Source: Lachnospiraceae bacterium GAM79 (lineage in GTDB: Bacteria > Bacillota_I > Bacilli_A > RFN20 > CAG-826). From it: a stretch of DNA of 64,000 nt. Made by a program: the position numbers and the translations under genes. The number at the start of each line of letters is the position of its first letter. Within the stretch, counting starts at the first letter, position 1. Under the pieces are notes generated by a model, which saw only the letters and a program-made list of their open reading frames with translations, was not told the origin of the DNA and did not search any database. Shown here piece after piece: positions 2,500-30,590 of this stretch. The stretch covers positions 11,988 through 75,987 of the forward strand of contig CAVEUC010000018.1 in NCBI GenBank assembly GCA_963619035.1, read 5' to 3'.

Positions 2500-3825
<1,326 letters not shown>

Positions 3826-3943
3826 TTATAATAAATTTTAACTTATAAGTTAAGAGAAAACATAAAGATAATAATCAATTTTTTTATTAATTAATCTTTA
3901 TTAAGCATAATTTCGAGCAAGTTACTTTAATTCAGTATTTCTG

Positions 3944-6900
3944 TTATTCTTCAATTGTTATAAATACCTGTTTATATACATGGTATCCACCATCTTCGCT
4001 AGAATCATCAAATAACACAATCTTATAATCACCTTTTGGTAAATCAACCAATTCAGGTCTTAAATATACTCCACTTTGTCCAGTTTGTTCTTTAATATTG
4101 TAAGTTCCGCCTGAATTGTGATTTGAATCAATTACATAATACCAATATATTGAAGCAACACCATTATCTGCATTAGGATTTACAACATCATCTTTTAGAT
4201 AAATTCCTACCCAATAATTTTTCTTTCCATAAGCAGTTACCAAAATATCTTCACCAACCTTATATACTTCTTTATTTGTTGATAATTCATTTTCAATAAC
4301 AGAAAGAACAGCATATCTTCTTTCAATCTCAACTCCGTCCTTTTTAAATATAGCTATCGCATTAGTTTTACCAACTGAATTTAAAGTATTATTTATGTAT
4401 TTTACAGTTATCCCATTAGGTAAAGTGCCCTCGATTGTTAAATTTACTTCTTCGGTATTTTGATAAATTTCTTTATCTTCGAATTTAATTGAAGACAAAC
4501 TGTCTTCATCTAATGTTTCGTTTTTTGAAACGCTTATATAAATAACATCATTTGGATCGTAATTATAACTACCATCTTTGAAATAAATAATCTTATAGGT
4601 TCCACCAGTGATTCCTCCTTGTAAATTATCTATTCCTTCTTGTATCGCTTTTGTTCTGAAATATTTATCTTCTTCTGAATTTATTGAATACCAGTATTTA
4701 GAAGGGGTTGAGGAGACTTCATCATCACTTTTATATATACCAATCCATGCAGAATTAGAACCACTTCCAATACTATAATTGCTGTCACATTTTGAAGTTG
4801 TAACAAATATATTCTCATTCTTTTTATACTGATTTTTATTTGTGACAAAATGCTTAACACTTATTGTAGCAACTCTTTTACCAACTATTTCTCCATTTAA
4901 TCTAAATATTGCGGTTGCTTTTGTAGAACCGAATTCAGTAATTTCGTTGTTTTCGTACTCTACAGCTATACCTTCGTTTAAAGTTCCTTGAATTTCTTTT
5001 ATATGTTTATTTCCATCATATAAATAATTTTCATCATTAAAAGATATATTTCCTAGATCAACTTTATCTTCATATTCAAGAACTTCATCGCATTTTGAAG
5101 AATCTGGTTTTGCTTTAGTCCAATCAAAATTCGAAAAATCATAATCAGTCCCAAAAATATTAAGCATTTCTTGGTAAGATTTAATACTTCCTTTTGAATG
5201 ATAAGTTTTATTATTATCATAATAGGATAGATAATCTAAGTAGTTATTAGCAACTTTTTCACTATATTGAGTATCAATATATTTCCATAAATTGTATGAC
5301 TCTTTTTTATCACCATAGATGTCTAATAAACCGAAATTTGCATAAGCACTTGCTTCAGCTTCGTGGTCTGTACATCTATAATAAGAGAATCCAACAATAG
5401 AGTCTAATTGTGATACTTTATAATAAGCTAAAGCTATACATGCAGCTTGTGTTTTTCTTAATTCATCAACATTGCTTCCAGGTAATTCGCAACTAGAAAT
5501 ACCGCTTTCATTTAAGTAAACAGGTCTTAATGAACCATTAACTTTTAAACTATCTTGATGAAGATATATATCTAATACTTCTAAATTTGAAAAAGTAATC
5601 ATTGCTGTAGCCTGATGATCTTCTGTATTTGTTGGATATTGGTTCATGCCAATTGTTTTTCCGCCTTTTGTAGTTGTTATATCATCCCCACCATACCAAG
5701 TATCAAGTTCATAAATACTATTTGAAGGTAAACTTCTACAATACGAATGAGGAGCTAAACCCCAATTATAATCTCCTTGTAATTTGCTTCTTTTATTAAG
5801 CCATCCAACTAAATCAAGAGGTGCATAGCCTTGAACATCATTTAATAAGCCATTTTTTTCTGTTTTTCCCCAGTTATGTGTAATAGGCATACAAACAGTT
5901 GTTGAATTACAATATTTTTTTGAAGCTAAATTAGCAATTCTTAACAATCTTGAATATTCTTCCATATATACATCAATAGAACTTTGTTTTTCACTAATTC
6001 TATTATAAGATTGTGGGAAATCTATTTCGTTTCCAATTACATAATTACTAATATATCCATTTTCAAAATTATATAAAGAGTGTCTATAATTAATAAACTC
6101 CATACAAGCAATAAAATAATCAAAACCATATTTATTTGATGTATTTTGACCCATTAATGAAGTCCCTTGAGCGGCATATGGTAAATAAGTCATTTTAGAA
6201 GGAAATTGTTCTTCGTTTGTATTAACTGTACATATTAAATTTAATGTTATATTTGCACCTAATTTATAAAATTTTTTTGTTTGTTTTTCTAAATCATCAA
6301 CTTTATCTTTATTAAAATAATAAATTGTTCCATTTGAAATAAAATTATATGTTACACTTTCATCAGGATGATCAATCTCGATTGCTTTATCGCCTTCAAA
6401 CACCTCATTAGGATAAATAAAACCATTTAAATCTAAATTTAAAACAGTATAAGAACAATTCAAATCTTTGAAAGCTTCATAGTCTTCTCCAAATAATCCT
6501 TTTTTAGATTTAATATTTAATATTGGCTTAGTATTTACTAACGATTCTACTTCTGTAACAAATACAGAACCTCTAATAATCTTATTATTTCTTACAACAT
6601 AAAATTTAGAATATAAATTATCGAATCCATCACTTTCATATCTATTTATTTCAATATTTTCTTCTGTTCCTAAAGAATATTCACCAACCTTATATTTTTC
6701 ATTTATTTCAACAATACTTTCACTTAATCCAGTAAAGAATTTATCCTCGTCTTTTTCTTCTTTAAAGTATTCGTAACCTCTTAACATATAAACTTCAGTT
6801 AAATCGTTTCCTACCAATTCTTCATCACTATTTAAACTTAATCTAATCTTATTTGAAGTAGCTGAAGCTTTTAAATTGATATATTGTTGCGTTTTTTCTA

Positions 6901-7015
6901 ATTCCAATAAATCGACTTTAGATTTTTTCCAATCATCATTACAACTTTCTAAGCATAAAGATGTTGAAGTAATTAACAAACTTAAAAACAATGAACATTT
7001 AATGTACTTTTTCAT
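3944..7015 (-). CDS. Large (about 1023-aa) surface (lipo)protein. The central region resembles a clan GH-A TIM-barrel glycoside hydrolase. The C-terminus carries two tandem copies of a module that is also found in the adjacent phosphoesterase.
   Basis: The signal peptide MKKYIKCSLFLSLLITSTSLCLESC contains a Cys. The start at 7015 (MKKYIK) has an AAGGATGG RBS; an alternative ATG lies at 7024. The central motifs VIGNEIDFPQ (GH-A acid/base-like NE) and VYLNESGIS (nucleophile-like) are about 200 aa apart in an aromatic-rich region. The C-terminal half is 2x [E..G.T.A.AIF..G....R.A..SV + NK..YK..E.I........W.GIY..DD....WYY]. Confidence 0.55.
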   Translation of the reverse strand: MKKYIKCSLFLSLLITSTSLCLESCNDDWKKSKVDLLELEKTQQYINLKASATSNKIRLSLNSDEELVGNDLTEVYMLRGYEYFKEEKDEDKFFTGLSESIVEINEKYKVGEYSLGTEENIEINRYESDGFDNLYSKFYVVRNNKIIRGSVFVTEVESLVNTKPILNIKSKKGLFGEDYEAFKDLNCSYTVLNLDLNGFIYPNEVFEGDKAIEIDHPDESVTYNFISNGTIYYFNKDKVDDLEKQTKKFYKLGANITLNLICTVNTNEEQFPSKMTYLPYAAQGTSLMGQNTSNKYGFDYFIACMEFINYRHSLYNFENGYISNYVIGNEIDFPQSYNRISEKQSSIDVYMEEYSRLLRIANLASKKYCNSTTVCMPITHNWGKTEKNGLLNDVQGYAPLDLVGWLNKRSKLQGDYNWGLAPHSYCRSLPSNSIYELDTWYGGDDITTTKGGKTIGMNQYPTNTEDHQATAMITFSNLEVLDIYLHQDSLKVNGSLRPVYLNESGISSCELPGSNVDELRKTQAACIALAYYKVSQLDSIVGFSYYRCTDHEAEASAYANFGLLDIYGDKKESYNLWKYIDTQYSEKVANNYLDYLSYYDNNKTYHSKGSIKSYQEMLNIFGTDYDFSNFDWTKAKPDSSKCDEVLEYEDKVDLGNISFNDENYLYDGNKHIKEIQGTLNEGIAVEYENNEITEFGSTKATAIFRLNGEIVGKRVATISVKHFVTNKNQYKKNENIFVTTSKCDSNYSIGSGSNSAWIGIYKSDDEVSSTPSKYWYSINSEEDKYFRTKAIQEGIDNLQGGITGGTYKIIYFKDGSYNYDPNDVIYISVSKNETLDEDSLSSIKFEDKEIYQNTEEVNLTIEGTLPNGITVKYINNTLNSVGKTNAIAIFKKDGVEIERRYAVLSVIENELSTNKEVYKVGEDILVTAYGKKNYWVGIYLKDDVVNPNADNGVASIYWYYVIDSNHNSGGTYNIKEQTGQSGVYLRPELVDLPKGDYKIVLFDDSSEDGGYHVYKQVFITIEE

Positions 7016-7026
7016 AAAAACCATCC

Positions 7027-8655
7027 TTATAATTTAATTTTATAACAAGCGCTTGAAATAAATTTTTTATTCACAAAATCTCTTCCAAGCACATAAATAC
7101 AATCATCATATACTTTTAAATAATATCCTTGGCTGCCTTTTAAATATTCTCCAGTAGGAATATTATAACTATCCCACAAATAAGCAACTGATGCTGTATT
7201 AAAGATATTAGGTAATAAATCATCTTTTTTATAATGATTTTTCTCACTATTCATATCCCAATGGCTATGACCATTAAAGAAAAATATTTGTTTATATTTT
7301 TCTATAATATTTCTTAAAGCGCTATCTTGAGTTACGCCGTTCCATCCTTGACCTTCTAAACTTCCTGCTATTGTGTTATACAAAGATTGATGCAAATAAA
7401 CAAAAACAGGTTTATTTGGATCTTTACCATTTTCTTCTTTCATAACATTATCAAACCAAGTTAACTGTTCATTACTTATATAAGCATCAACACTACTATC
7501 GCTATTTTCACTTCCTAAGAACACATGAGTATATCCATCTATTTCAACTTTATAATAGACGGAATCTTGCTTTGAATATTTATAGAAATAATTTATTTGA
7601 TTATCATATGATCCACCATATAAATCATGGTTTCCTAATGAATAATAAACATTATTTATAATATTAGAATTAGTAAGTAGAGAATTAGCTTCTTCCCATT
7701 CTCTTTCGCTTCCTGAATTTGCAATATCACCAACTACAATTGTATTTGTGCTTTCACCTTTATTAACATTTTCAAAATCTTTTAACATTTCTTTTAAATG
7801 CTCTGTATGTAAAGTTTTTGCGTCACTTGATGCTAAATGGGTATCTTCTAAAGCAATGTGTATATCGCTAACAACTTCAAAATCAATACTACTTTTTTCA
7901 TCGTTTCTTAAAGAATTTAAAGCTAAATTAGGTAAATTAAATTCTCTATAACTCGCACTCTTTCCAGCACTATTTTTTGAATAAACTACTAATTTCGTTG
8001 CTTCTTTTGGAATAATCACATCGTCATTTAGTTTTATAGTACAAGGGTTTGTATAAACTTTTTCTGTTCTTAATGAAGTGTATTCTTCTAACACACCTTT
8101 ATCGTTAGCCCAATACATAACAACCTCGTTTACAGGAATATCATCAAAAGTTAATTCGATTGTACCATTTGATGTACCACTAGTTACATCATCAAGAATA
8201 TATTCAACATTAGTAGGAGCATTTGGTAATGTTATTTTATCTTCTAACACTTCAAAAGTATAAGTATCTAGTACATATTTTGAATAATCTTTTTTATCCA
8301 TTGTATCATTAGAAAATAAAACAGCTTTATATTTAAAACTAGGCATATTTTTCACAACATCTCTACTCGTATTATATGTTAATGATTTTGTTACATTATA
8401 ATATTTATCACTGACAAAACCATTCTTATTAACATAATACCATCTAATTGAATCAACCTTGTTTATATCATCACTTTCTCTATAAATGCCAACCCATGAA
8501 TTACCATCACCTTTAGCTTTAATATAAATATCCTCAAATTTTTTATATTGAGTTTTATTAGTACTAACCAAGCCTTTGCTTTCATTTGTACAACCAAATA
8601 CACCTAGTAAAATAGGCGTAATTAAAAATATCTTTAATAAATTCTTTTTCTTCAT
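7027..8655 (-). CDS. Surface lipoprotein of the calcineurin-like metallophosphoesterase family, a possible nucleotidase or phosphodiesterase. It carries an N-terminal WVGIY/WYY beta-module.
   Basis: The signal peptide plus Cys is MKKKNLLKIFLITPILLGVFGC. All metallophosphoesterase motifs are present in order: VVSDIHI (DxH), VVGDIANSG (GDxx), SLGNHDL (GNHD), YLHQS (H) and NGHSHWD (GHxH). The N-terminal NKTQYKKFEDIYIKAKGDGNSWVGIYRESDD...IRWYYV is homologous to the two C-terminal modules of the 3944..7015 protein. Confidence 0.8.
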   Translation of the reverse strand: MKKKNLLKIFLITPILLGVFGCTNESKGLVSTNKTQYKKFEDIYIKAKGDGNSWVGIYRESDDINKVDSIRWYYVNKNGFVSDKYYNVTKSLTYNTSRDVVKNMPSFKYKAVLFSNDTMDKKDYSKYVLDTYTFEVLEDKITLPNAPTNVEYILDDVTSGTSNGTIELTFDDIPVNEVVMYWANDKGVLEEYTSLRTEKVYTNPCTIKLNDDVIIPKEATKLVVYSKNSAGKSASYREFNLPNLALNSLRNDEKSSIDFEVVSDIHIALEDTHLASSDAKTLHTEHLKEMLKDFENVNKGESTNTIVVGDIANSGSEREWEEANSLLTNSNIINNVYYSLGNHDLYGGSYDNQINYFYKYSKQDSVYYKVEIDGYTHVFLGSENSDSSVDAYISNEQLTWFDNVMKEENGKDPNKPVFVYLHQSLYNTIAGSLEGQGWNGVTQDSALRNIIEKYKQIFFFNGHSHWDMNSEKNHYKKDDLLPNIFNTASVAYLWDSYNIPTGEYLKGSQGYYLKVYDDCIYVLGRDFVNKKFISSACYKIKL

Positions 8656-8684
8656 ATTAATATAGACGATTTAAGAGACTCTTT

Positions 8685-9314
8685 TTATTTATTTTTTAAA
8701 CTAAATTCGCATCCACAATAATTTTGTCGATAAACATTGTATTTTTTTGACAAAGCGATTCCAATATCTTGTCCACCATCCCTTTTAAAATCGCATTGAA
8801 TATAATAGACATTTCCATATTCTTTTTCAACTTTTCTTCCTAGTTCATTAATAAACATACTGTTTTTATTTCTAGAAATACTCATTACAGTTGTCACATA
8901 ATTAAAATTATTAATGTTTGCATATTCAAATAATCTTCTTATTCTTTTTTCAATGCAAATTTCACATCTTTTTCCACCTTCTTTTTCATCAGCATAAGGT
9001 ATTAAATCTTCGATAAACAAAGAATGATTATAGGAATCTTCAACAATTTTAATATTAGTATCTAAATCTTTTTCAATACTTTTTACATACTCTTTTAAAG
9101 CGTTTAATCTTTTTAAATATTCTTCATGAGGTGTTATATTAGAATTAGAAAATAGAATTGTTATATCAAATAAGTCAGTTAAAAAAACAAGTGGATAACA
9201 TGAACAAGCTCCACAACACACATGTAACAATAACTTTGGTTTTTCACCATCTTTTTTAATGTTTCTATATTCTACAAAAAACTCTTTATAGTAATCACAT
9301 TTTTTTAGATTCAT
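8685..9314 (-). CDS. queH: Epoxyqueuosine reductase QueH (DUF208 family).
   Basis: The conserved Cys clusters are LLHVCCGACSCYP and NYCGCEFS. The proposed start MNLKKCDYY at 9314 overlaps the end of queA by 20 nt; the ORF-track start lies further upstream. Confidence 0.8.
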   Translation of the reverse strand: MNLKKCDYYKEFFVEYRNIKKDGEKPKLLLHVCCGACSCYPLVFLTDLFDITILFSNSNITPHEEYLKRLNALKEYVKSIEKDLDTNIKIVEDSYNHSLFIEDLIPYADEKEGGKRCEICIEKRIRRLFEYANINNFNYVTTVMSISRNKNSMFINELGRKVEKEYGNVYYIQCDFKRDGGQDIGIALSKKYNVYRQNYCGCEFSLKNK

Positions 9315-10335
9315 ATATAAACATCGCATCTCCAAAACTAAAGAAATGATATTTTTCTTCAACTGCATGCTTATATACATCAAGTGTAAATTCTCTTCCT
9401 ATAAATGCGCTTACAAGCATAATCAAAGTTGATTTAGGCAAATGAAAATTTGTAATTAAACAATCAATTGCTTTATATTCGTATCCCGGACTAATAAAAA
9501 TATTAGTAGATGCTTTTTCAGCTTTAAAACAATTAAATTTATTAAAGTTAGCTTCTAAAGTTCTAACACAAGTTGTACCTACAGCAATTATTCTTCTACC
9601 TTCTTTTTTAGCTGCATTTAATTTTTCTGCAACTTCTTCTTTAATTTCATATTCTTCACTATGCATCACATGATCATTTGTATCTTTAACTTTAACAGGT
9701 CTAAACGTTCCTAATCCGATAGTTAAAGTTACATCTAATATTTCAACACCTTTTTCTTTTAGTTTCTCTAATAATTCGTTTGTAAAATGAAAACCAGCTG
9801 TTGGAGCAGCAGCACTTCCTTCATTTTTAGCATAAACTGTTTGATATTTATTATTATCATCAACTTCTTTATGAATATAAGGAGGTAAAGGTAAAATTCC
9901 AATTTTATCTAACTCTTCTAAAAAGATTCCGTTGTATTTAAATTTTAATAATCTTATACCTTCGTCTTTAATTCCAACACATTTAGCAACTAAAATGTCA
10001 TCTTTAAAATGTAAAACTGAATCTAGTTTAATTGCTTTAGCATTACCGCATAAACACTCCCAAGTATCATTACCTAAATCTTTTAATAATAAAACTTCAA
10101 CATGTGCATTAGTAACTTCTTTAGTTGCAAAAAGTCTAGCAGGAATAACTTTTGTATTATTTCTTACCAAAACATCACCTTTTTTAAAATAATTAATAAT
10201 GTTATAAAAATAAGAATCTTTATATGTGTTTGTAGATTTATCTACCAATAATAATCTACATTCATCTCTTTTTTGACTAGGTTCTTGTGCAATTAATTCT
10301 TCAGGTAAATTATAATTAAATAATTCAATATCCAT
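9295..10335 (-). CDS. queA: S-adenosylmethionine:tRNA ribosyltransferase-isomerase.
   Basis: Full-length QueA match, for example MDIELFNYNLPEELIAQEPSQKRDECRLLLVDKST and GTTCVRTLE. Confidence 0.95.
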   Translation of the reverse strand: MDIELFNYNLPEELIAQEPSQKRDECRLLLVDKSTNTYKDSYFYNIINYFKKGDVLVRNNTKVIPARLFATKEVTNAHVEVLLLKDLGNDTWECLCGNAKAIKLDSVLHFKDDILVAKCVGIKDEGIRLLKFKYNGIFLEELDKIGILPLPPYIHKEVDDNNKYQTVYAKNEGSAAAPTAGFHFTNELLEKLKEKGVEILDVTLTIGLGTFRPVKVKDTNDHVMHSEEYEIKEEVAEKLNAAKKEGRRIIAVGTTCVRTLEANFNKFNCFKAEKASTNIFISPGYEYKAIDCLITNFHLPKSTLIMLVSAFIGREFTLDVYKHAVEEKYHFFSFGDAMFIYESKKM

Positions 10336-10336
10336 A

Positions 10337-11491
<1,155 letters not shown>

Positions 11492-11495
11492 TTAT

Positions 11496-12083
11496 CTAAA
11501 ACTTAAAATCCATTGATGTATTTGCATCAATTAGACTATAAAATCCCTTATATTTTTTTGCTAGAACCATAAATAAAGGATAACCAACACAAACTATACA
11601 AATGAATTCACCTAAAAAAGTCCAACCAAATGTAATCATAAAAGCTGTAAAAGTCATACCAGCTTGGACATCACACAAATAGACGATTAAAGGTACAACA
11701 AGAGCATTTACAACACAAGGCATAAATGCAGATAACAATAAATTTTTAATAGTTTTACTAACCAAAATAATTAATAAGCAACCAATTAAAGTTCCTAATG
11801 TTCCAAAAACCATATCAAATACTCCATATTGGCTCATTATGTTACTTAATAAACAACCTAATGTTAAACCAATTGTGTATAAAGGATTAAAGAATACTAA
11901 AAGATTAAGCAATTCACTAAATCTTAATTGCAAACTTCCTCCATTATAACTTAATGGACCACACAATATAGTTACAACAGCATATAATGCTGCTATTAAT
12001 GCATTAGTCACAATACATTTTACGGTTAAATTTTTCTTAAACCATAAAGAAACGGATGAACCTTTTTTGTTTGATTCGTTCAT
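11496..12083 (-). CDS. queT: Queuosine-precursor ECF transporter S component (QueT, COG4708-like).
   Basis: A 195-aa polytopic membrane protein with the QueT-like motif LQLRFSELLNLLVFFNP. It sits directly upstream of tgt-queA-queH and behind a structured leader. Confidence 0.65.
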   Translation of the reverse strand: MNESNKKGSSVSLWFKKNLTVKCIVTNALIAALYAVVTILCGPLSYNGGSLQLRFSELLNLLVFFNPLYTIGLTLGCLLSNIMSQYGVFDMVFGTLGTLIGCLLIILVSKTIKNLLLSAFMPCVVNALVVPLIVYLCDVQAGMTFTAFMITFGWTFLGEFICIVCVGYPLFMVLAKKYKGFYSLIDANTSMDFKF

Positions 12084-12085
12084 AA

Positions 12086-12150
12086 AAATACCCCCTTGTT
12101 AAATTTTACGAGTGGTTAGTCAATGGGAAAGACACTCGAGTCGATATTAA
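12086..12150 (-). ncRNA. Candidate preQ1 riboswitch (class unresolved) in the queT leader.
   Basis: The minus-strand leader is CGACUC GAGUG UCUUUCCCAUUGACUAAC CACUC GUAAAAUUUAACAAGGGGG UAUUUUU AUG. It forms a 5-bp stem plus a U/C-rich loop containing CCC, then an A-rich tail (UUAACAAGG, compare the T. tengcongensis preQ1-I tail UUAACAAAACAAGG) that runs into the SD. An upstream TATAAT -10 box lies at 12150-12155 on the minus strand. Confidence 0.45.
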
Positions 12151-12183: not shown

Positions 12184-12729
12184 TTAATTAAGCTTTCGAG
12201 TGAAAACATAAAAAAATCCATTATTATAATAGTTCATTTTAGCTCTTAGTACCTTCCGAAAAGTTAAATCGCAAAAGAAGAAAAATAATAACCAAAAAGG
12301 AACAAGAATAAACAAAAAATAATATGGAACCCCTACTATTTTGTAACTATAATCATCAAACAATTCGATACGATATGCAAAAATTGCGTTAAGAATATTA
12401 CCAATTTCTAATAAATAAAAACCGCTTAAAACTAGTATCGTTAGCCATCTATTTTTAAATATTTTATATTTGCAATCATAGATAAAGAAAACAATAGATG
12501 TAACAATCATTAAAAACATAAAGAAATAAGATAAGCAATCAAATGCTAAAATAATTGGATTTTTAAAAGTTATCCCAAACATTGAAATCCACAAACCACC
12601 TAGTGTTGAAAATAAAAACAAATTAAAAATGTAAATACATAACTTCTGATAAATTTTAACATCTGGAATACTATCTATATTTTTAATAAATATAAAATTT
12701 AAATAAGTCCTTTTATTATTGTTTAACAT
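12184..12729 (-). CDS. Small polytopic membrane protein (4 TM helices predicted). Function unknown.
   Basis: Strongly hydrophobic. Its start overlaps the stop of the 12723..13703 gene by 7 nt. It ends exactly where the queT leader begins. Confidence 0.4.
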   Translation of the reverse strand: MLNNNKRTYLNFIFIKNIDSIPDVKIYQKLCIYIFNLFLFSTLGGLWISMFGITFKNPIILAFDCLSYFFMFLMIVTSIVFFIYDCKYKIFKNRWLTILVLSGFYLLEIGNILNAIFAYRIELFDDYSYKIVGVPYYFLFILVPFWLLFFFFCDLTFRKVLRAKMNYYNNGFFYVFTRKLN

Positions 12730-13703
12730 AAAACCTCATTTATCCATTTTGAAGAAAAATCGGAATATATTTGCCAACCAATAGCAAACCCTTTTTCTAA
12801 ATATCCGAATACAAATAGAGTTGTTATAAATGTAATAATGGCACAACCTAGAATTATTAAAGCAACGCTTATAAGAACCGAAATTAAATCATGACTAAAA
12901 ACGGCAAGAACTAAACTTGAATAAATACCAGAAAAATAAATCGTTATAGATTCTATAATGCTCAATAAACTTGAAAAATTAATTATAGACAAATTATTTA
13001 AAGTAATTATTAATTCATAAATTGTTTTCCAAATACTAGGGGTATTCGAGGCCGTATCTCTTGTTTGATCATTCGCATAAGATGCAATTAGATTATAAAC
13101 TGCAATACAAAAATCCTTAGAACATTTAATCCCAATAAAAAGAAGCGAATTTAAATAATTGTTTGTAGATAAGAAGGAATTTGATTCATTCAACGTTCTT
13201 GTTGAAAATTCAATAGTTTCACTAGTTCCGTATGGGTTTTCAAATTTATAAAATCTACTATTAATATATTTACTATTTTTAACCGGAAACGATTCGCTTT
13301 TATCATTAATCGTGTCTGTAGTAATAAATTTTTTAGAATAATTTTCAAAACATAAACTATCTTCGTTATATTTTTTAATCAAATCATTAGAACAATTGAA
13401 AAATTCTATATTTGAAATATTCTCAATATTATAGTAATTTTCATCAGAAATAATACTATCTTTTATTGCATCCACAATATTAGAAGACAAATTATCTTTG
13501 TTATAATTTAAAATTTTTTGTTTTACTATAGAATTCCAACTATAATAATCTAAATTATAATTTTCAGTAAAATAAACATCCTCAGAATCTTCTAATAATT
13601 CAACTGCTTTTTCTTTGTAAGCTGCTAATTTAGCGGCTTCCGATGTTGATTGACAATTAGTAAGAGCAAGGGCTCCAGTTAGAATTAGATAATTTATTAC
13701 CAT
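12723..13703 (-). CDS. Membrane-anchored lipoprotein of unknown function, with an N-terminal lipobox and C-terminal TM helices.
   Basis: MVINYLILTGALALTNC has an LTNC lipobox. An Asn/Ser-rich ectodomain is followed by about 3 C-terminal TM helices. Confidence 0.5.
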   Translation of the reverse strand: MVINYLILTGALALTNCQSTSEAAKLAAYKEKAVELLEDSEDVYFTENYNLDYYSWNSIVKQKILNYNKDNLSSNIVDAIKDSIISDENYYNIENISNIEFFNCSNDLIKKYNEDSLCFENYSKKFITTDTINDKSESFPVKNSKYINSRFYKFENPYGTSETIEFSTRTLNESNSFLSTNNYLNSLLFIGIKCSKDFCIAVYNLIASYANDQTRDTASNTPSIWKTIYELIITLNNLSIINFSSLLSIIESITIYFSGIYSSLVLAVFSHDLISVLISVALIILGCAIITFITTLFVFGYLEKGFAIGWQIYSDFSSKWINEVLC

Positions 13704-30041: not shown

Positions 30042-30494
30042 TTATTTTTTTCTTCTATCTTTAAAAAAGTCTTTAATTATTTTTTTACAATCTTCTTCTA
30101 AAATACCCCCATCTATCTCAATTTTTGAACTTTCTAATTCAAAATTTTTATCATGAGATAAACAGGCTCCAGTATTCGATTCATACGCACCAAAAACAAT
30201 TCGTTTAATTCTTGATTGGATGATTGCACTAGTACACATTGCACATGGTTCTAATGTAACATACATTGTTAAATTATTTAGTCTCCAATCATTTATTTTT
30301 TTACTAGCTTTTTTAATACATAAAATTTCAGCATGACCAGTAACGTCATTTAATTTTTCTTTTTTATTATAAGCTTTAGATACAATATTTAAATTTTCAT
30401 CAACCAAAATAGCGCCGATAGGAACTTCTTCGTTTTTTAGTGCTTTTCCCGCTTCTTTTAGTGCGAGTTTCATAAAATAGATATCGTTTTTCAT
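30042..30494 (-). CDS. tadA: tRNA-specific adenosine deaminase.
   Basis: Motifs HAEILCI...TLEPCAMCTSAI are present. The N-terminus MKNDIYFMKLALKEA parallels B. subtilis MTQDELYMKEAIKEA. The ORF-track start is a GTG at 30512 that lies inside the SRP RNA, so the ATG at 30494 is preferred. Confidence 0.88.
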   Translation of the reverse strand: MKNDIYFMKLALKEAGKALKNEEVPIGAILVDENLNIVSKAYNKKEKLNDVTGHAEILCIKKASKKINDWRLNNLTMYVTLEPCAMCTSAIIQSRIKRIVFGAYESNTGACLSHDKNFELESSKIEIDGGILEEDCKKIIKDFFKDRRKK

Positions 30495-30497
30495 AAA

Positions 30498-30590
30498 ATA
30501 AAACCATCGCACAATTATAGGTTTTCTTAAGGCTGCTATGTTCCCATCCTGACCTGGTTCGAAAGTATAAATCGCGATGGCTAAATTATT
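30498..30590 (-). ncRNA. ffs: Signal recognition particle RNA (small 4.5S-type SRP RNA, ffs/scr).
   Basis: The minus strand reads AGCCAUCGCGAUUUAUACUUUCGAACCAGGUCAGGAUGGGAACAUAGCAGCCUUAAGAAAACCUAUAAUUGUGCGAUGG. Its core ACCAGGUCAGG...GGAA...AGCAGCC matches the conserved domain IV of E. coli 4.5S RNA (ACCAGGUCAGGUCCGGAAGGAAGCAGCC). The terminal helix is CCAUCGC/GCGAUGG. A TATAAT box lies about 7 nt upstream. Confidence 0.75.

Follow-up and report, generated by a model that had tools for sequence, protein, structure and literature searches.

The window (the whole stretch of 64,000 nucleotides analysed here) carries a gene for a large surface protein (BIG) containing a DUF5722 barrel, a predicted glycosidase, directly next to a gene for a metallophosphoesterase (MPE). 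The domain identities and the obligate pairing of glycosidase and MPE are stated with high confidence, and the pair is very likely independent of queuosine salvage, the genes of which lie directly upstream. We propose that the pair is a self-contained surface unit of glycosidase and phosphodiesterase, queuosine-independent, which would act jointly on a phospho-glycan of the cell's own envelope; taken as a whole, this statement has an even chance of being right.

Architecture of the two surface proteins

The following features were located in the window:

7027..8655, minus strand: MPE gene, surface lipoprotein-type metallophosphoesterase of 542 aa (ORF; Pfam Metallophos, E=5.7e-11)
8590..8655, minus strand: predicted MPE signal peptide and lipobox, MKKKNLLKIFLITPILLGVFGC22 (read from the sequence)
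8263..8571, minus strand: SKICH-like Ig-fold module of MPE, residues 29-131, single copy (BLASTP against the BIG copies; module HMM, E=3e-29)
7906..8238, minus strand: MPE middle domain, residues 140-250 (conserved block in the homologue alignment)
7030..7893, minus strand: MPE catalytic domain, residues 255-542 (motif positions and conservation)
3944..7024, minus strand: BIG gene, large surface protein (ORF; 1026 aa from the ATG at 7024)
6941..7024, minus strand: predicted BIG signal peptide with two candidate lipobox cysteines, TSLC24 and LESC28 (read from the sequence)
6530..6892, minus strand: BIG N-terminal all-beta domain, residues 45-165 (AF2 strands 49-159, pLDDT 85-98)
5222..6517, minus strand: DUF5722 catalytic (beta/alpha)8 barrel of clan GH-A type, BIG residues 170-601
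6026..6031, minus strand: codons of the putative acid/base N332-E333 (just past strand beta4, 325-330, AF2)
5507..5509, minus strand: codon of the putative nucleophile E506 (end of strand beta7, 502-507, AF2)
4856..5068, minus strand: MBG-type small beta domain copy 1, BIG residues 653-723 (submodule HMM, E=3e-28)
4529..4852, minus strand: SKICH-like Ig-fold module copy 1, BIG residues 725-832 (module HMM, E=4e-23; all-beta in AF2)
4298..4510, minus strand: MBG-type small beta domain copy 2, BIG residues 839-909 (submodule HMM, E=8e-28)
3953..4288, minus strand: SKICH-like Ig-fold module copy 2, BIG residues 913-1024
3862..3901, minus strand: weak-terminator candidate, an A/U-only hairpin followed by GUUUUCUCUU (fold; 43 nt past the BIG stop codon)

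Both ORFs were confirmed as adjacent genes on the same strand, and the junction sequence gave the gap of 2 or 11 nt described in the first-pass annotation. A BIG start at 7015, behind AAGGA, yields 1023 aa and matches the public, NCBI-style gene call; this ATG is more likely the true start. Searches returned 223 homologues of MPE, one of which, from NCBI, is 100% identical, and 68 homologues of BIG, all of them (68/68) with PF18989. The signal peptide and cysteine reported earlier for each protein were found again (...LGVFGC22 in MPE, ...TSLC24LESC28 in BIG), and a lipobox-type cysteine is kept in 57/66 MPE and 35/49 BIG orthologues, one BIG subclade having plain Sec signals instead; the signal-peptide region of BIG was modelled with a pLDDT <50 (AF2). 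These features support the prediction that both are membrane-anchored enzymes of the surface lipoprotein type. Downstream of BIG, the energy of the hairpin at 3862..3901 was no better than that of shuffled sequence (z=-0.59); this hairpin may be a weak terminator preceding the promoter-like site of eno, TTAACT-17-TATAAT (3853..3825).

MPE contains the complete calcineurin-like motif set in canonical order, as previously read: D264-x-H266 (DIH264-266), G309-D310, G341-N-H-D344, H422 and G462-H-x-H465 (GHSH462-465). All motif residues are invariant among 31 aligned homologues, and the Pfam Metallophos score was 43.6 bits as compared to a cut-off of 21.5. By its motifs, MPE is a bona fide metallophosphoesterase. 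The family profile retrieved GpdQ (2dxl/2zo9, E=3e-7) and Rv0805/Icc (about 1e-3) from the PDB and no other solved relative. Hence, we infer a phosphodiesterase rather than a monoesterase; the former suggestion of a nucleotide-dephosphorylating enzyme did not agree with these closest solved relatives, which are diesterases and not nucleotidases. GpdQ-type enzymes are promiscuous, and MPE may therefore act as a monoesterase or on nucleotides. The middle domain, for which Pfam at E<=10 returned only noise, is probably a beta-sandwich.

BIG matched Pfam DUF5722 (PF18989) with E=1e-65, and the AF2 model of the whole protein reached a pLDDT of 88.9; its residues 45-165 gave no Pfam match. All 60 DUF5722 homologues have N332 (motif VIGNEID), and at least 90% of them have E333. 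E506 (motif YLNESG) likewise reaches at least 90% among the 60, and a set of 16 orthologues has it without exception. The IGNE/LNESG pair noticed earlier thus stood, but its spacing is 173 residues and not about 200. The central region, formerly called GH-A-like, belongs to a named Pfam family and was modelled as a TIM-barrel core with the glutamates at the positions of clan GH-A. The model supports a TIM-barrel glycosidase of this clan, built like GH39/PslG, which is probably a retaining enzyme in which E333 serves as acid/base and E506 as nucleophile.

In the stalk of BIG, two MBG and two SKICH-like domains alternate, MBG first. The SKICH-like module of about 105 aa is common to both proteins, once in MPE and twice in BIG, as had been noted: MPE residues 30-120 matched BIG 914-1011 (E=8e-11) and 726-789 (E=1e-7) in BLASTP, and a module HMM found the three copies with E=1e-23 to 1e-34. 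These copies gave no Pfam match even at E<=10; however, bacterial relatives reach Pfam SKICH (PF17751; best E=7e-20 summed over repeats), and BIG copy 2 (residues 913-1024), which was modelled, folds as an Ig-like sandwich. The module, previously placed in no named family, is a divergent SKICH/macroglobulin-type Ig-like beta-sandwich. It is present in >4000 protein clusters and co-occurs with the surface-protein domains CW_binding_2, GH25, fn3 and Flg_new. The 35-aa submodule described before each copy corresponds to the C-terminal half of a 71-aa MBG-type domain (about 70 aa). According to the submodule HMM, this domain occurs twice in most BIG orthologues and is absent from MPE; Pfam MBG_3 was matched by 9/31 orthologous copies (best 9.3e-6).

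Conservation of the pair and its likely substrate

Orthologues were grouped into 15 lineages at 70% identity. In every lineage (15/15), orthologues of MPE and DUF5722 are immediate neighbours, encoded on one strand and separated by a small gap; the order of the two genes differs between clades. Furthermore, in three fusion proteins (P0054, P0057, P0063) the DUF5722 and Metallophos domains share one chain with two SKICH-like modules, and the shared module separates the two catalytic domains. Adjacency despite inverted order, together with these fusions, would hardly be expected of enzymes that do not function together.

We assume that BIG would be a lipid-anchored glycoside hydrolase on the outer face of the cell membrane, consisting of N-terminal beta domain, DUF5722 barrel and Ig-type stalk, and MPE its lipid-anchored, binuclear metallophosphoesterase partner with one SKICH-like domain. 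Both would act on one glycan or glycolipid bearing phosphodiester links, the phosphodiesterase cutting or removing the phosphate-linked part and the glycosidase cutting the sugar chain. Such a joint phospho-glycan substrate may or may not apply, with equal probability. The most likely target would be an envelope polymer of the cell itself, an assignment that we make only tentatively. The substrate is a matter of pure inference, because a full-text literature search gave no paper on DUF5722 or PF18989.

The envelope was suggested by genomic neighbours. A homologous PgaC/EpsU-like membrane GT2 gene lies <=3 kb from the pair in five lineages and directly adjoins it in L014, L019 and L029, a UgtP-like diglucosyl-diacylglycerol synthase gene adjoins it in one lineage, and Wzx, Wzy, rml and GT2 genes do so in the two lineages nearest to that of the window (57-65% identity). 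MsbA-like exporter genes, but no sugar-uptake ABC systems, also occur in the vicinity. These neighbours are more frequent than queT-tgt-queA-queH. The 64-kb window itself contains no GT2, Wzx or UgtP homologue; the envelope link comes from other lineages, about 7/15.

Alternatively, the same enzymes could serve nutrient scavenging in the gut and degrade foreign phosphodiester glycans to sugar and phosphate, e.g., teichoic acids of other bacteria, capsular sugar-phosphate polymers, or phosphoglycans and phosphoglycolipids of yeast and plants. This explanation, which we consider rather unlikely, would fit the outward-facing position of both enzymes on long Ig-domain stalks (one to six copies across homologues), the carriers, which are gut-derived uncultured Clostridia/Christensenellales-type genomes, and the about half of the lineages without any envelope-synthesis neighbour. 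A DUF5722-only paralogue adjoins a gene for zinc phospholipase C, another phosphodiesterase, and fusions of distant DUF5722 proteins to SGNH esterases suggest decorated glycan substrates. However, no recurrent sugar-uptake transporter, regulator or other catabolic gene was found by the pair across lineages; the ABC genes nearby are MsbA-like exporter types, and the neighbours that do recur are all biosynthetic glycosyltransferases or flippases.

Mere co-location of enzymes with unrelated substrates is improbable. MPE would then acquire phosphate, e.g., as a nuclease, nucleotidase or cyclic-nucleotide phosphodiesterase at the surface, and DUF5722 would be an ordinary polysaccharide hydrolase. 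Rv0805/Icc-type enzymes, which hydrolyse cyclic nucleotides, are among the MPE profile matches; DUF5722 paralogues without MPE occur, as do MPE homologues with the same module, in Big_2 or Flg_new architectures, without DUF5722. The constant adjacency and the independent fusions described above speak against it.

The queuosine genes upstream of the pair

Two further features adjoin MPE:

8656..8684, minus strand: queH-MPE spacer of 29 nt without hairpin or obvious Shine-Dalgarno sequence (read from the sequence)
8685..12083, minus strand: queT-tgt-queA-queH, directly upstream and outside the conserved unit (Pfam QueT, TGT, Queuosine_synth, QueH)

The first-pass annotation had tentatively joined the pair to these genes as an extracellular salvage arm, in which MPE would dephosphorylate queuosine 5'-phosphate from degraded host tRNA, the glycosidase would trim mannosyl- or galactosyl-queuosine, and QueT would import the product. 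Its 29-nt gap without a stable hairpin was confirmed (fold of -5 kcal/mol, z=+0.68), and no terminator was found from queT to the MPE start. Because of this gap, read-through from the queuosine operon into the pair is plausible; nothing in the sequence between queH and the pair speaks against it. The riboswitch-bearing leader could not be substantiated, as 141 nt gave no Rfam match to preQ1-I, -II or -III even at E<=10.

The arrangement of queT-tgt-queA-queH with the pair was seen only in L001, L002 and L005, the last a relative of 84% identity, and is kept in strains at 96% identity. The survey of relatives showed these genes flanking the pair in 1/15 lineages, the window's own genus-level lineage, as compared to 15/15 for the pair itself; the next-closest relatives carry the rml/Wzx/Wzy neighbours instead. 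In one other lineage, queDECF-folE lies 4.5 kb away on the opposite strand, with four unrelated genes between. Since homologues elsewhere have no salvage neighbours, the functional tie is unsupported.

Biochemically, Q-3'/5'-monophosphates are recognised queuine sources, and QueK/Qng1 hydrolase and QueL lyase are needed to turn Q or its monophosphates into a substrate of bacterial Tgt (PMC11130926). The operon here lacks both enzymes, its queA and queH indicate the preQ1-inserting route, and no IU-nucleoside-hydrolase motif was found in the window. Furthermore, the nearest solved relatives of MPE are diesterases, and GH39-like enzymes act on glycans, with no pointer to a nucleoside aglycone. 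The text of a 2024 comparative survey of Q-precursor transporters contains no phosphoesterase, lipoprotein or glycosidase term (PMC11130926). A salvage role is thus very improbable. That the pair lies behind the queuosine genes seems to be a chance local event and not a functional link: it would have landed behind queH in this genus, with probable read-through. Least credible of all, non-catalytic adhesins or structural surface proteins on degenerate enzyme folds would fit the long Ig-domain arrays and the MBG and SKICH-like domains typical of adhesin-like surface proteins, but all residues for metal binding and catalysis show little or no variation across 31 MPE and 60 DUF5722 homologues.

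Comparison with known systems

Known queuosine salvage comprises QueT/QrtT or YhhQ, QueK/Qng1 and QueL. The queT-tgt-queA-queH genes are standard members of this pathway, whereas the DUF5722-MPE pair does not recur beside its genes.

GpdQ (2dxl, 2zo9, 3d03) and the class III enzymes Rv0805/Icc (2hy1, 3ib7) are calcineurin-like and binuclear with the same five motifs as MPE; however, no more than about 135 catalytic-core residues fall within the profile match, and MPE, of putative activity, is twice as long, lipid-anchored and preceded by SKICH-like and middle beta domains. Purple acid phosphatases (lupin PPD1, 3zk4) likewise have a beta-sandwich domain N-terminal to the MPE catalytic domain, and some homologues gave weak Pur_ac_phosph_N or fn3_PAP matches, but the catalytic-domain profile found GpdQ/Icc and no purple acid phosphatase in the PDB. 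Nearest to the shared module are SKICH (PF17751; NDP52, TAX1BP1, SKIP/PIPP) and macroglobulin (MG) domains. The strand motif W-[VI]-G-[IL]-[YF], typical of SKICH, is present in the module, which differs in being extracellular, bacterial and arranged in tandem arrays.

The teichoic-acid and phosphoglycan enzymes GlpQ (GDPD family), PhoD and GlcNAc-PDase follow the same concept of an extracytoplasmic phosphodiesterase acting on sugar- or polyol-phosphate diesters and enabling glycosidases; they belong to protein families different from that of MPE, and no DUF5722 glycosidase accompanies or is fused to any of them. PhoD is related to purple acid phosphatases (PMC4223295); GlcNAc-PDase is a sugar-specific phosphodiesterase of the EEP family, and the read-out of its screen needed added hexosaminidase (PMC10704324).

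GH39 and PslG (clan GH-A; 5jvk, 1w91, 4zn2/5bx9) share with BIG the Asn-Glu after beta4 and the Glu in beta7. Sequence identity is only 12-16%, BIG gave no sequence-level match to PDB chains, and Pfam files it under the separate family DUF5722; unlike GH39/PslG, it has an N-terminal beta domain, an MBG/SKICH stalk, a lipid anchor and a constant MPE partner. An analogue for the proposed action on the cell's own envelope polymer is provided by hydrolases of the PslG or BcsZ type, which are found alongside polysaccharide synthases. PslG is encoded among the synthesis genes of its exopolysaccharide, a setting echoed by the GT2 and Wzx neighbours of the pair in other lineages.

Gene order and transcription signals at the locus

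The two genes under study encode a metallophosphoesterase of the surface lipoprotein type (MPE) and a large surface protein with a DUF5722 domain (BIG). Both lie on the minus strand, where prs comes first, followed by two small ORFs that are variable and then by queT, tgt, queA, queH, MPE, BIG and eno.

Features of the locus (window positions)
12083..11496, minus strand: queT
3' end at 8685, minus strand: queH
8655..7027, minus strand: MPE gene, 542-aa ORF
7024 or 7015..3944, minus strand: BIG gene, 1026-aa ORF
3795..2500, minus strand: eno, with a clear terminator after it

The coordinates and reading frames assigned to both ORFs in the first-pass annotation were correct. The public gene call starts BIG at the ATG at position 7015 (1023 aa), which is preceded by AAGGA. 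The GC content was about 26% throughout the region, and no compositional break was found at the pair.

Folding of the 29-nt spacer between queH and the MPE gene revealed no hairpin, and a terminator scan from queT to the pair found no terminator-like site, which makes read-through transcription from queH into the MPE and BIG genes plausible in the genus of the window. A terminator-like site at 8620..8599 lies within the codons for the MPE signal peptide and is attributed to chance; the scan gave 5 such sites where 2.2 were expected. On the 3' side of the BIG gene, only an A/U hairpin with a U-tract was found, followed by a promoter-like site for eno. Promoter-like sites were discarded as evidence, because 60 were observed as compared to 81 in shuffled sequence and they therefore carry no information.

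The leader from which the pair was thought to be transcribed had also been described as bearing a riboswitch, for which Rfam gave no support. The queT leader matched none of the Rfam preQ1 classes I, II and III; the covariance models gave no match at gathering score, at E ≤ 1 (20 kb) or at E ≤ 10 (1.6 kb and 141 nt). At gathering score, Rfam recognised a single element in the whole window, the Bacterial small SRP RNA at 30491..30588 (minus strand, 64 bits). The 58 nt before the queT start (12084..12141, minus strand) are identical in the window and in L001 and L005, two related loci of the same lineage, and the sequence just upstream diverges. By eye, these 58 nt contain a possible hairpin (CUCGAGUG/CACUCG) with a loop UUCCC pairing with the GGGGG Shine-Dalgarno sequence, an arrangement similar to a preQ1-I pseudoknot in which the loops are larger. 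Searching metagenomes for variants of the leader core yielded a single hit, attributable to chance, so that covariation speaks neither for nor against this structure. The leader may be an unrecognised variant of the preQ1 riboswitch or an element that controls translation in another way.

The stretch from prs to queT contains two ORFs, namely 12184..12729 (minus strand), encoding a membrane protein of 181 aa, and 12723..13703 (minus strand), encoding a protein of 326 aa with a signal peptide and a lipobox-like LTNC. Neither matched Pfam or NCBIfam. Their identities to the L001/L005 counterparts were 37–80% and 45–47%, respectively, and those of the flanking Prs, QueT and Tgt 97–100%; the interval 12184..13703 looks like a hypervariable surface-protein locus. 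In an assembly of the same species (L002:5532-6679), tgt is divided into two ORFs (287 and 94 aa) owing to a frameshift or an assembly error.

Domain architecture of the two surface proteins

The Pfam profile Metallophos (PF00149) matched MPE residues 261–466 with 43.6 bits (cut-off 21.5, E = 5.7e-11). Five motifs occur in the order D264-I-H266, G309-D310, G341-N-H-D344, H422 and G462-H-S-H465, and all five were invariant in an alignment of 31 homologues with identities down to 35%; hence, the earlier assignment to the calcineurin-like metallophosphoesterases with canonical motif order holds. A PDB search with the single MPE sequence gave no match. The family profile retrieved the glycerophosphodiesterase GpdQ (E = 3e-7) and Rv0805/Icc (about 1e-3), in matches covering only about 135 core residues, and no PDB entries beyond these. 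Judging from these nearest relatives, MPE is probably a diesterase-type enzyme. NCBIfam contains no family for MPE or for BIG.

Pfam DUF5722 (PF18989) matched BIG residues 170–601 with 222.6 bits (cut-off 30.5, E = 1e-65, profile positions 4–387 of 393), and the domain was carried by all 68 BIG homologues found. A literature search found no mention of DUF5722 or PF18989. The structure of the whole protein, predicted from a 60-sequence alignment with a mean pLDDT of 88.9, contains a (beta/alpha)8 barrel as in clan GH-A. In this clan, the acid/base Glu, usually within an Asn-Glu pair, is located at the C-terminal end of beta4 and the nucleophile Glu at the end of beta7. In the model of BIG, a predicted strand at 325–330 is followed by N332-E333, and E506 lies within a predicted strand at 502–507; all of the 60 homologues have N332, and the proportion with E333, like that with E506, is at least 90%. 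The model puts N332-E333 and E506 at the positions of the acid/base and nucleophile in clan GH-A, which makes them the putative catalytic residues. As the strand positions match this clan, the earlier reading of BIG as a TIM-barrel hydrolase stands in the fold model, against the objection that the region is no such barrel. Membership of GH39 by sequence was considered and rejected, with identities of 12–16% (12–14% in the structural alignments) and no PDB chain retrieved by the DUF5722 profile at E ≤ 1.

Both proteins begin with a basic, hydrophobic signal followed by a Cys residue. The predicted lipoboxes are LGVFGC22 in MPE and TSLC24/LESC28 in BIG, the latter atypical at positions -1 and -2. 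A regular expression identified a lipobox-type Cys in 57 of 66 MPE and 35 of 49 BIG orthologues, many with the canonical L-x-[AG]-C (LFAC, LVGC, LSGC); one orthologue subclade has ordinary Sec signals in place of the lipobox. Signal peptide and lipobox Cys together mark both proteins as predicted lipoproteins. The identity of MPE and BIG was 96% between strains and 84–86% between species, with the flanking Tgt, QueA and Eno at 95–100%. The pair thus diverges faster than its neighbours, which fits exposed surface proteins.

A module common to MPE and BIG, noticed already in the first-pass annotation, is real: the N-terminus of MPE (29–131) matched the two C-terminal copies in BIG (913–1024 and 725–832) with BLASTP E-values of 8e-11 and 1e-7, respectively. 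An HMM built from these three copies detected one to six copies per protein in 111 proteins, which were either homologues retrieved in the search or ORFs from the loci examined. Among 1.84 billion proteins searched with a profile made from 53 copies, 4054 representative clusters matched at E ≤ 1e-3 and 1149 at E ≤ 1e-10; the module is therefore a repeat that is frequent in large surface proteins of bacteria. Domains accompanying it in 57 other sampled proteins were fn3, Metallophos, CW_binding_2, GH25, Exo_endo_phos, Flg_new and other surface-protein domains.

The module had been described as unplaceable, and its three copies in the window indeed matched no Pfam model, SKICH included, at E ≤ 10, which explains the failure to place it. 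However, their relatives reach SKICH (PF17751): matches were obtained at E ≤ 0.01 in 6 of 47 orthologous copies and at E ≤ 1e-5 in 8 of the 57 sampled proteins (best 7e-20), and the homologous protein P0037 scored 29.7 bits (cut-off 23.4). Furthermore, BIG residues 913–1024 were modelled as a seven-strand sandwich with a pLDDT of 94.7. The module is probably a divergent Ig-like domain of the SKICH/MG type rather than a new fold. A PDB sequence search with the module gave nothing useful, and a literature search on SKICH in bacteria together with metallophosphoesterases found nothing relevant.

A submodule of 35 aa, described alongside, is the second half of a 71-aa domain (BIG 653–723 and 839–909), of which most BIG orthologues have two copies and MPE never any. 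Pfam MBG_3 (PF18887) matched 9 of 31 orthologous copies (best 9.3e-6), and neither copy in the window at E ≤ 10. The precomputed annotation of several homologues (P0006, P0007, P0009, P0018, P0036, P0043 and the P0135-P0147 group) lists PF28587 or PF26182, both of which were absent when P0006 and P0036 were rescanned against the Pfam copy used; one of these families may already name the shared module or the stalk domains.

Conservation of the pair and its neighbours

The MAGs to which the low-GC gut bacterium of the window is related are labelled Clostridia or Christensenellales. Loci were surveyed with one genome per species, yielding 37 loci; extra contigs were obtained by exact-protein look-ups, and grouping at 70% identity of BIG gave 15 lineages. 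In all 15, an MPE orthologue (44–65% identical) directly adjoins a DUF5722 orthologue on the same strand. The order is DUF5722 followed by MPE in most lineages and the reverse in the clade of the window; hence, adjacency survived an inversion of gene order. In three proteins, DUF5722, Metallophos and two copies of the module are fused in a single chain. DUF5722 paralogues that are shorter, with about 31% identity, have no MPE neighbour. A DUF5722-only paralogue (L047:6847-10508) lies directly downstream of a gene for a zinc-dependent phospholipase C, another phosphodiesterase, which would be in line with head groups of phospholipids or glycolipids as the substrates. A three-gene version was observed at L044:5529-14560, with a DUF5722-fn3 protein, a DUF5722-Metallophos fusion (1424 aa) and a 757-aa fn3 protein in a row.

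When 97 proteins flanking the pair at 13 loci were classified by Pfam, family-2 glycosyltransferases (GT2) headed the census with six members. These form one homologous cluster, and outside the lineage of the window no other neighbour is as frequent. Of the 15 lineages, 5 have a PgaC/EpsU-like GT2 gene within 3 kb of the pair, and a further 2 have Wzx/Wzy/rml genes as neighbours. The GT2 gene is the immediate neighbour in L014/L015/L016, in L019 and, with two copies, in L029; it lies 1.6 kb away in L006/L010/L022 and at the contig edge in L023.

GT2-neighbour regions in related loci
L014:12665-13999
L019:8595-9884
L029:15285-18190
L006:6880-9612

In NCBIfam, the families closest to these GT2 proteins were those of EpsU, PgaC/IcaA and membrane synthases of the cellulose-synthase type, with no score reaching an equivalog cut-off. 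Between GT2 and the pair, L006/L010/L022 encode a UgtP-like diglucosyl-diacylglycerol synthase. The two lineages closest to the window (57–65% identity) have rmlACBD, GT2 and a Wzx flippase (L045:1-8125) or Wzx and Wzy (L046:5758-10891) adjoining the pair. Association with Wzx/rml was rejected as a general rule, being confined to the clade closest to the window apart from a single MurJ-like gene. Nearby ABC genes encode MsbA- and MacB-like exporters, and the census revealed no sugar-uptake system recurrent among the neighbours. None of the GT2, UgtP or Wzx/Wzy/rml neighbours is present within the 64 kb of the window.

Proposed function and relation to known systems

The pair is an uncharacterised surface unit of gut Clostridia in which a putative glycosidase and a putative phosphodiesterase are tightly coupled, and it is built from known parts. 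We tentatively propose, as a possibility rather than the probable case, that DUF5722 is an undescribed clan GH-A family working obligately with a GpdQ-like phosphodiesterase, neighbouring or fused, as a surface glyco-phosphodiesterase machine that would cut sugar-phosphate polymers or phosphoglycolipids, such as teichoic-acid-like polymers and lipid-linked glycans. It would be widespread in uncultured gut Clostridia, with no characterised member.

Obligate pairing and the fusions suggest that both catalytic domains would act on one substrate. A GH-A glycosidase combined with a GpdQ-like diesterase would point to a glycan or glycolipid with phosphodiester links. Biosynthetic genes next to the pair, present in roughly half of the lineages, would suggest an envelope polymer of the producer itself. 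This polymer might be trimmed or released by the glycosidase in a PslG- or BcsZ-like manner. The phosphodiesterase would act on a phosphate bridge, which may be a lipid-phosphate anchor, a polyol-phosphate or a phospho-substituent, and the Ig-type stalk, whose copy number varies, would keep both enzymes off the membrane. Foreign teichoic-acid-like polymers as the substrate are a serious alternative to the producer's own envelope.

The first-pass annotation had instead proposed that the pair, situated behind queT-tgt-queA-queH, scavenges queuosine outside the cell. Conserved adjacency to these four genes was found in only one of the 15 lineages, comprising the window, L001/L002 (96%) and L005 (84%). 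In L026/L043, the de novo genes queDECF-folE lie 4.5 kb from the pair on the other strand, behind four unrelated genes. The survey covered about 20 kb per lineage; by a rough estimate, not a computed statistic, chance would give about one or two encounters with queuosine genes over this length. Close spacing is not specific to queuosine either, as the pair in L045 lies 95 nt downstream of the rml-wzx operon on the same strand. Furthermore, the operon has queA and queH and is devoid of QueK/Qng1 and QueL, which are needed to use Q or Q monophosphates with a bacterial Tgt (PMC11130926); no nucleoside-hydrolase motif was found in the 64-kb window. A queuosine-scavenging role is thus highly improbable. 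For annotation, the lesson is that genes spaced closely behind queH, as in an operon, do not attest a shared pathway when this is seen in a single genus. What the first-pass annotation had observed largely stands, as do its enzyme assignments on fold-level evidence; the queuosine function it proposed is not supported.

If the glyco-phosphodiesterase reading is right, the unit is a lead for enzyme discovery rather than for queuosine biology. DUF5722 would be a new glycoside hydrolase family whose constant phosphodiesterase partner provides a built-in clue to the substrate, and a domain pair decorating thousands of bacterial surface proteins would receive a name (SKICH-like, MBG). The carriers are poorly cultured but abundant gut bacteria, and the unit is worth an enzymologist's attention.

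Among CAZy families, GH39 resembles BIG at the level of the fold only. PslG- and BcsZ-like hydrolases belong to polysaccharide synthase systems; the 64 kb of the window contain no synthase or export genes of this kind, and in some of the other lineages such genes are located near the pair.
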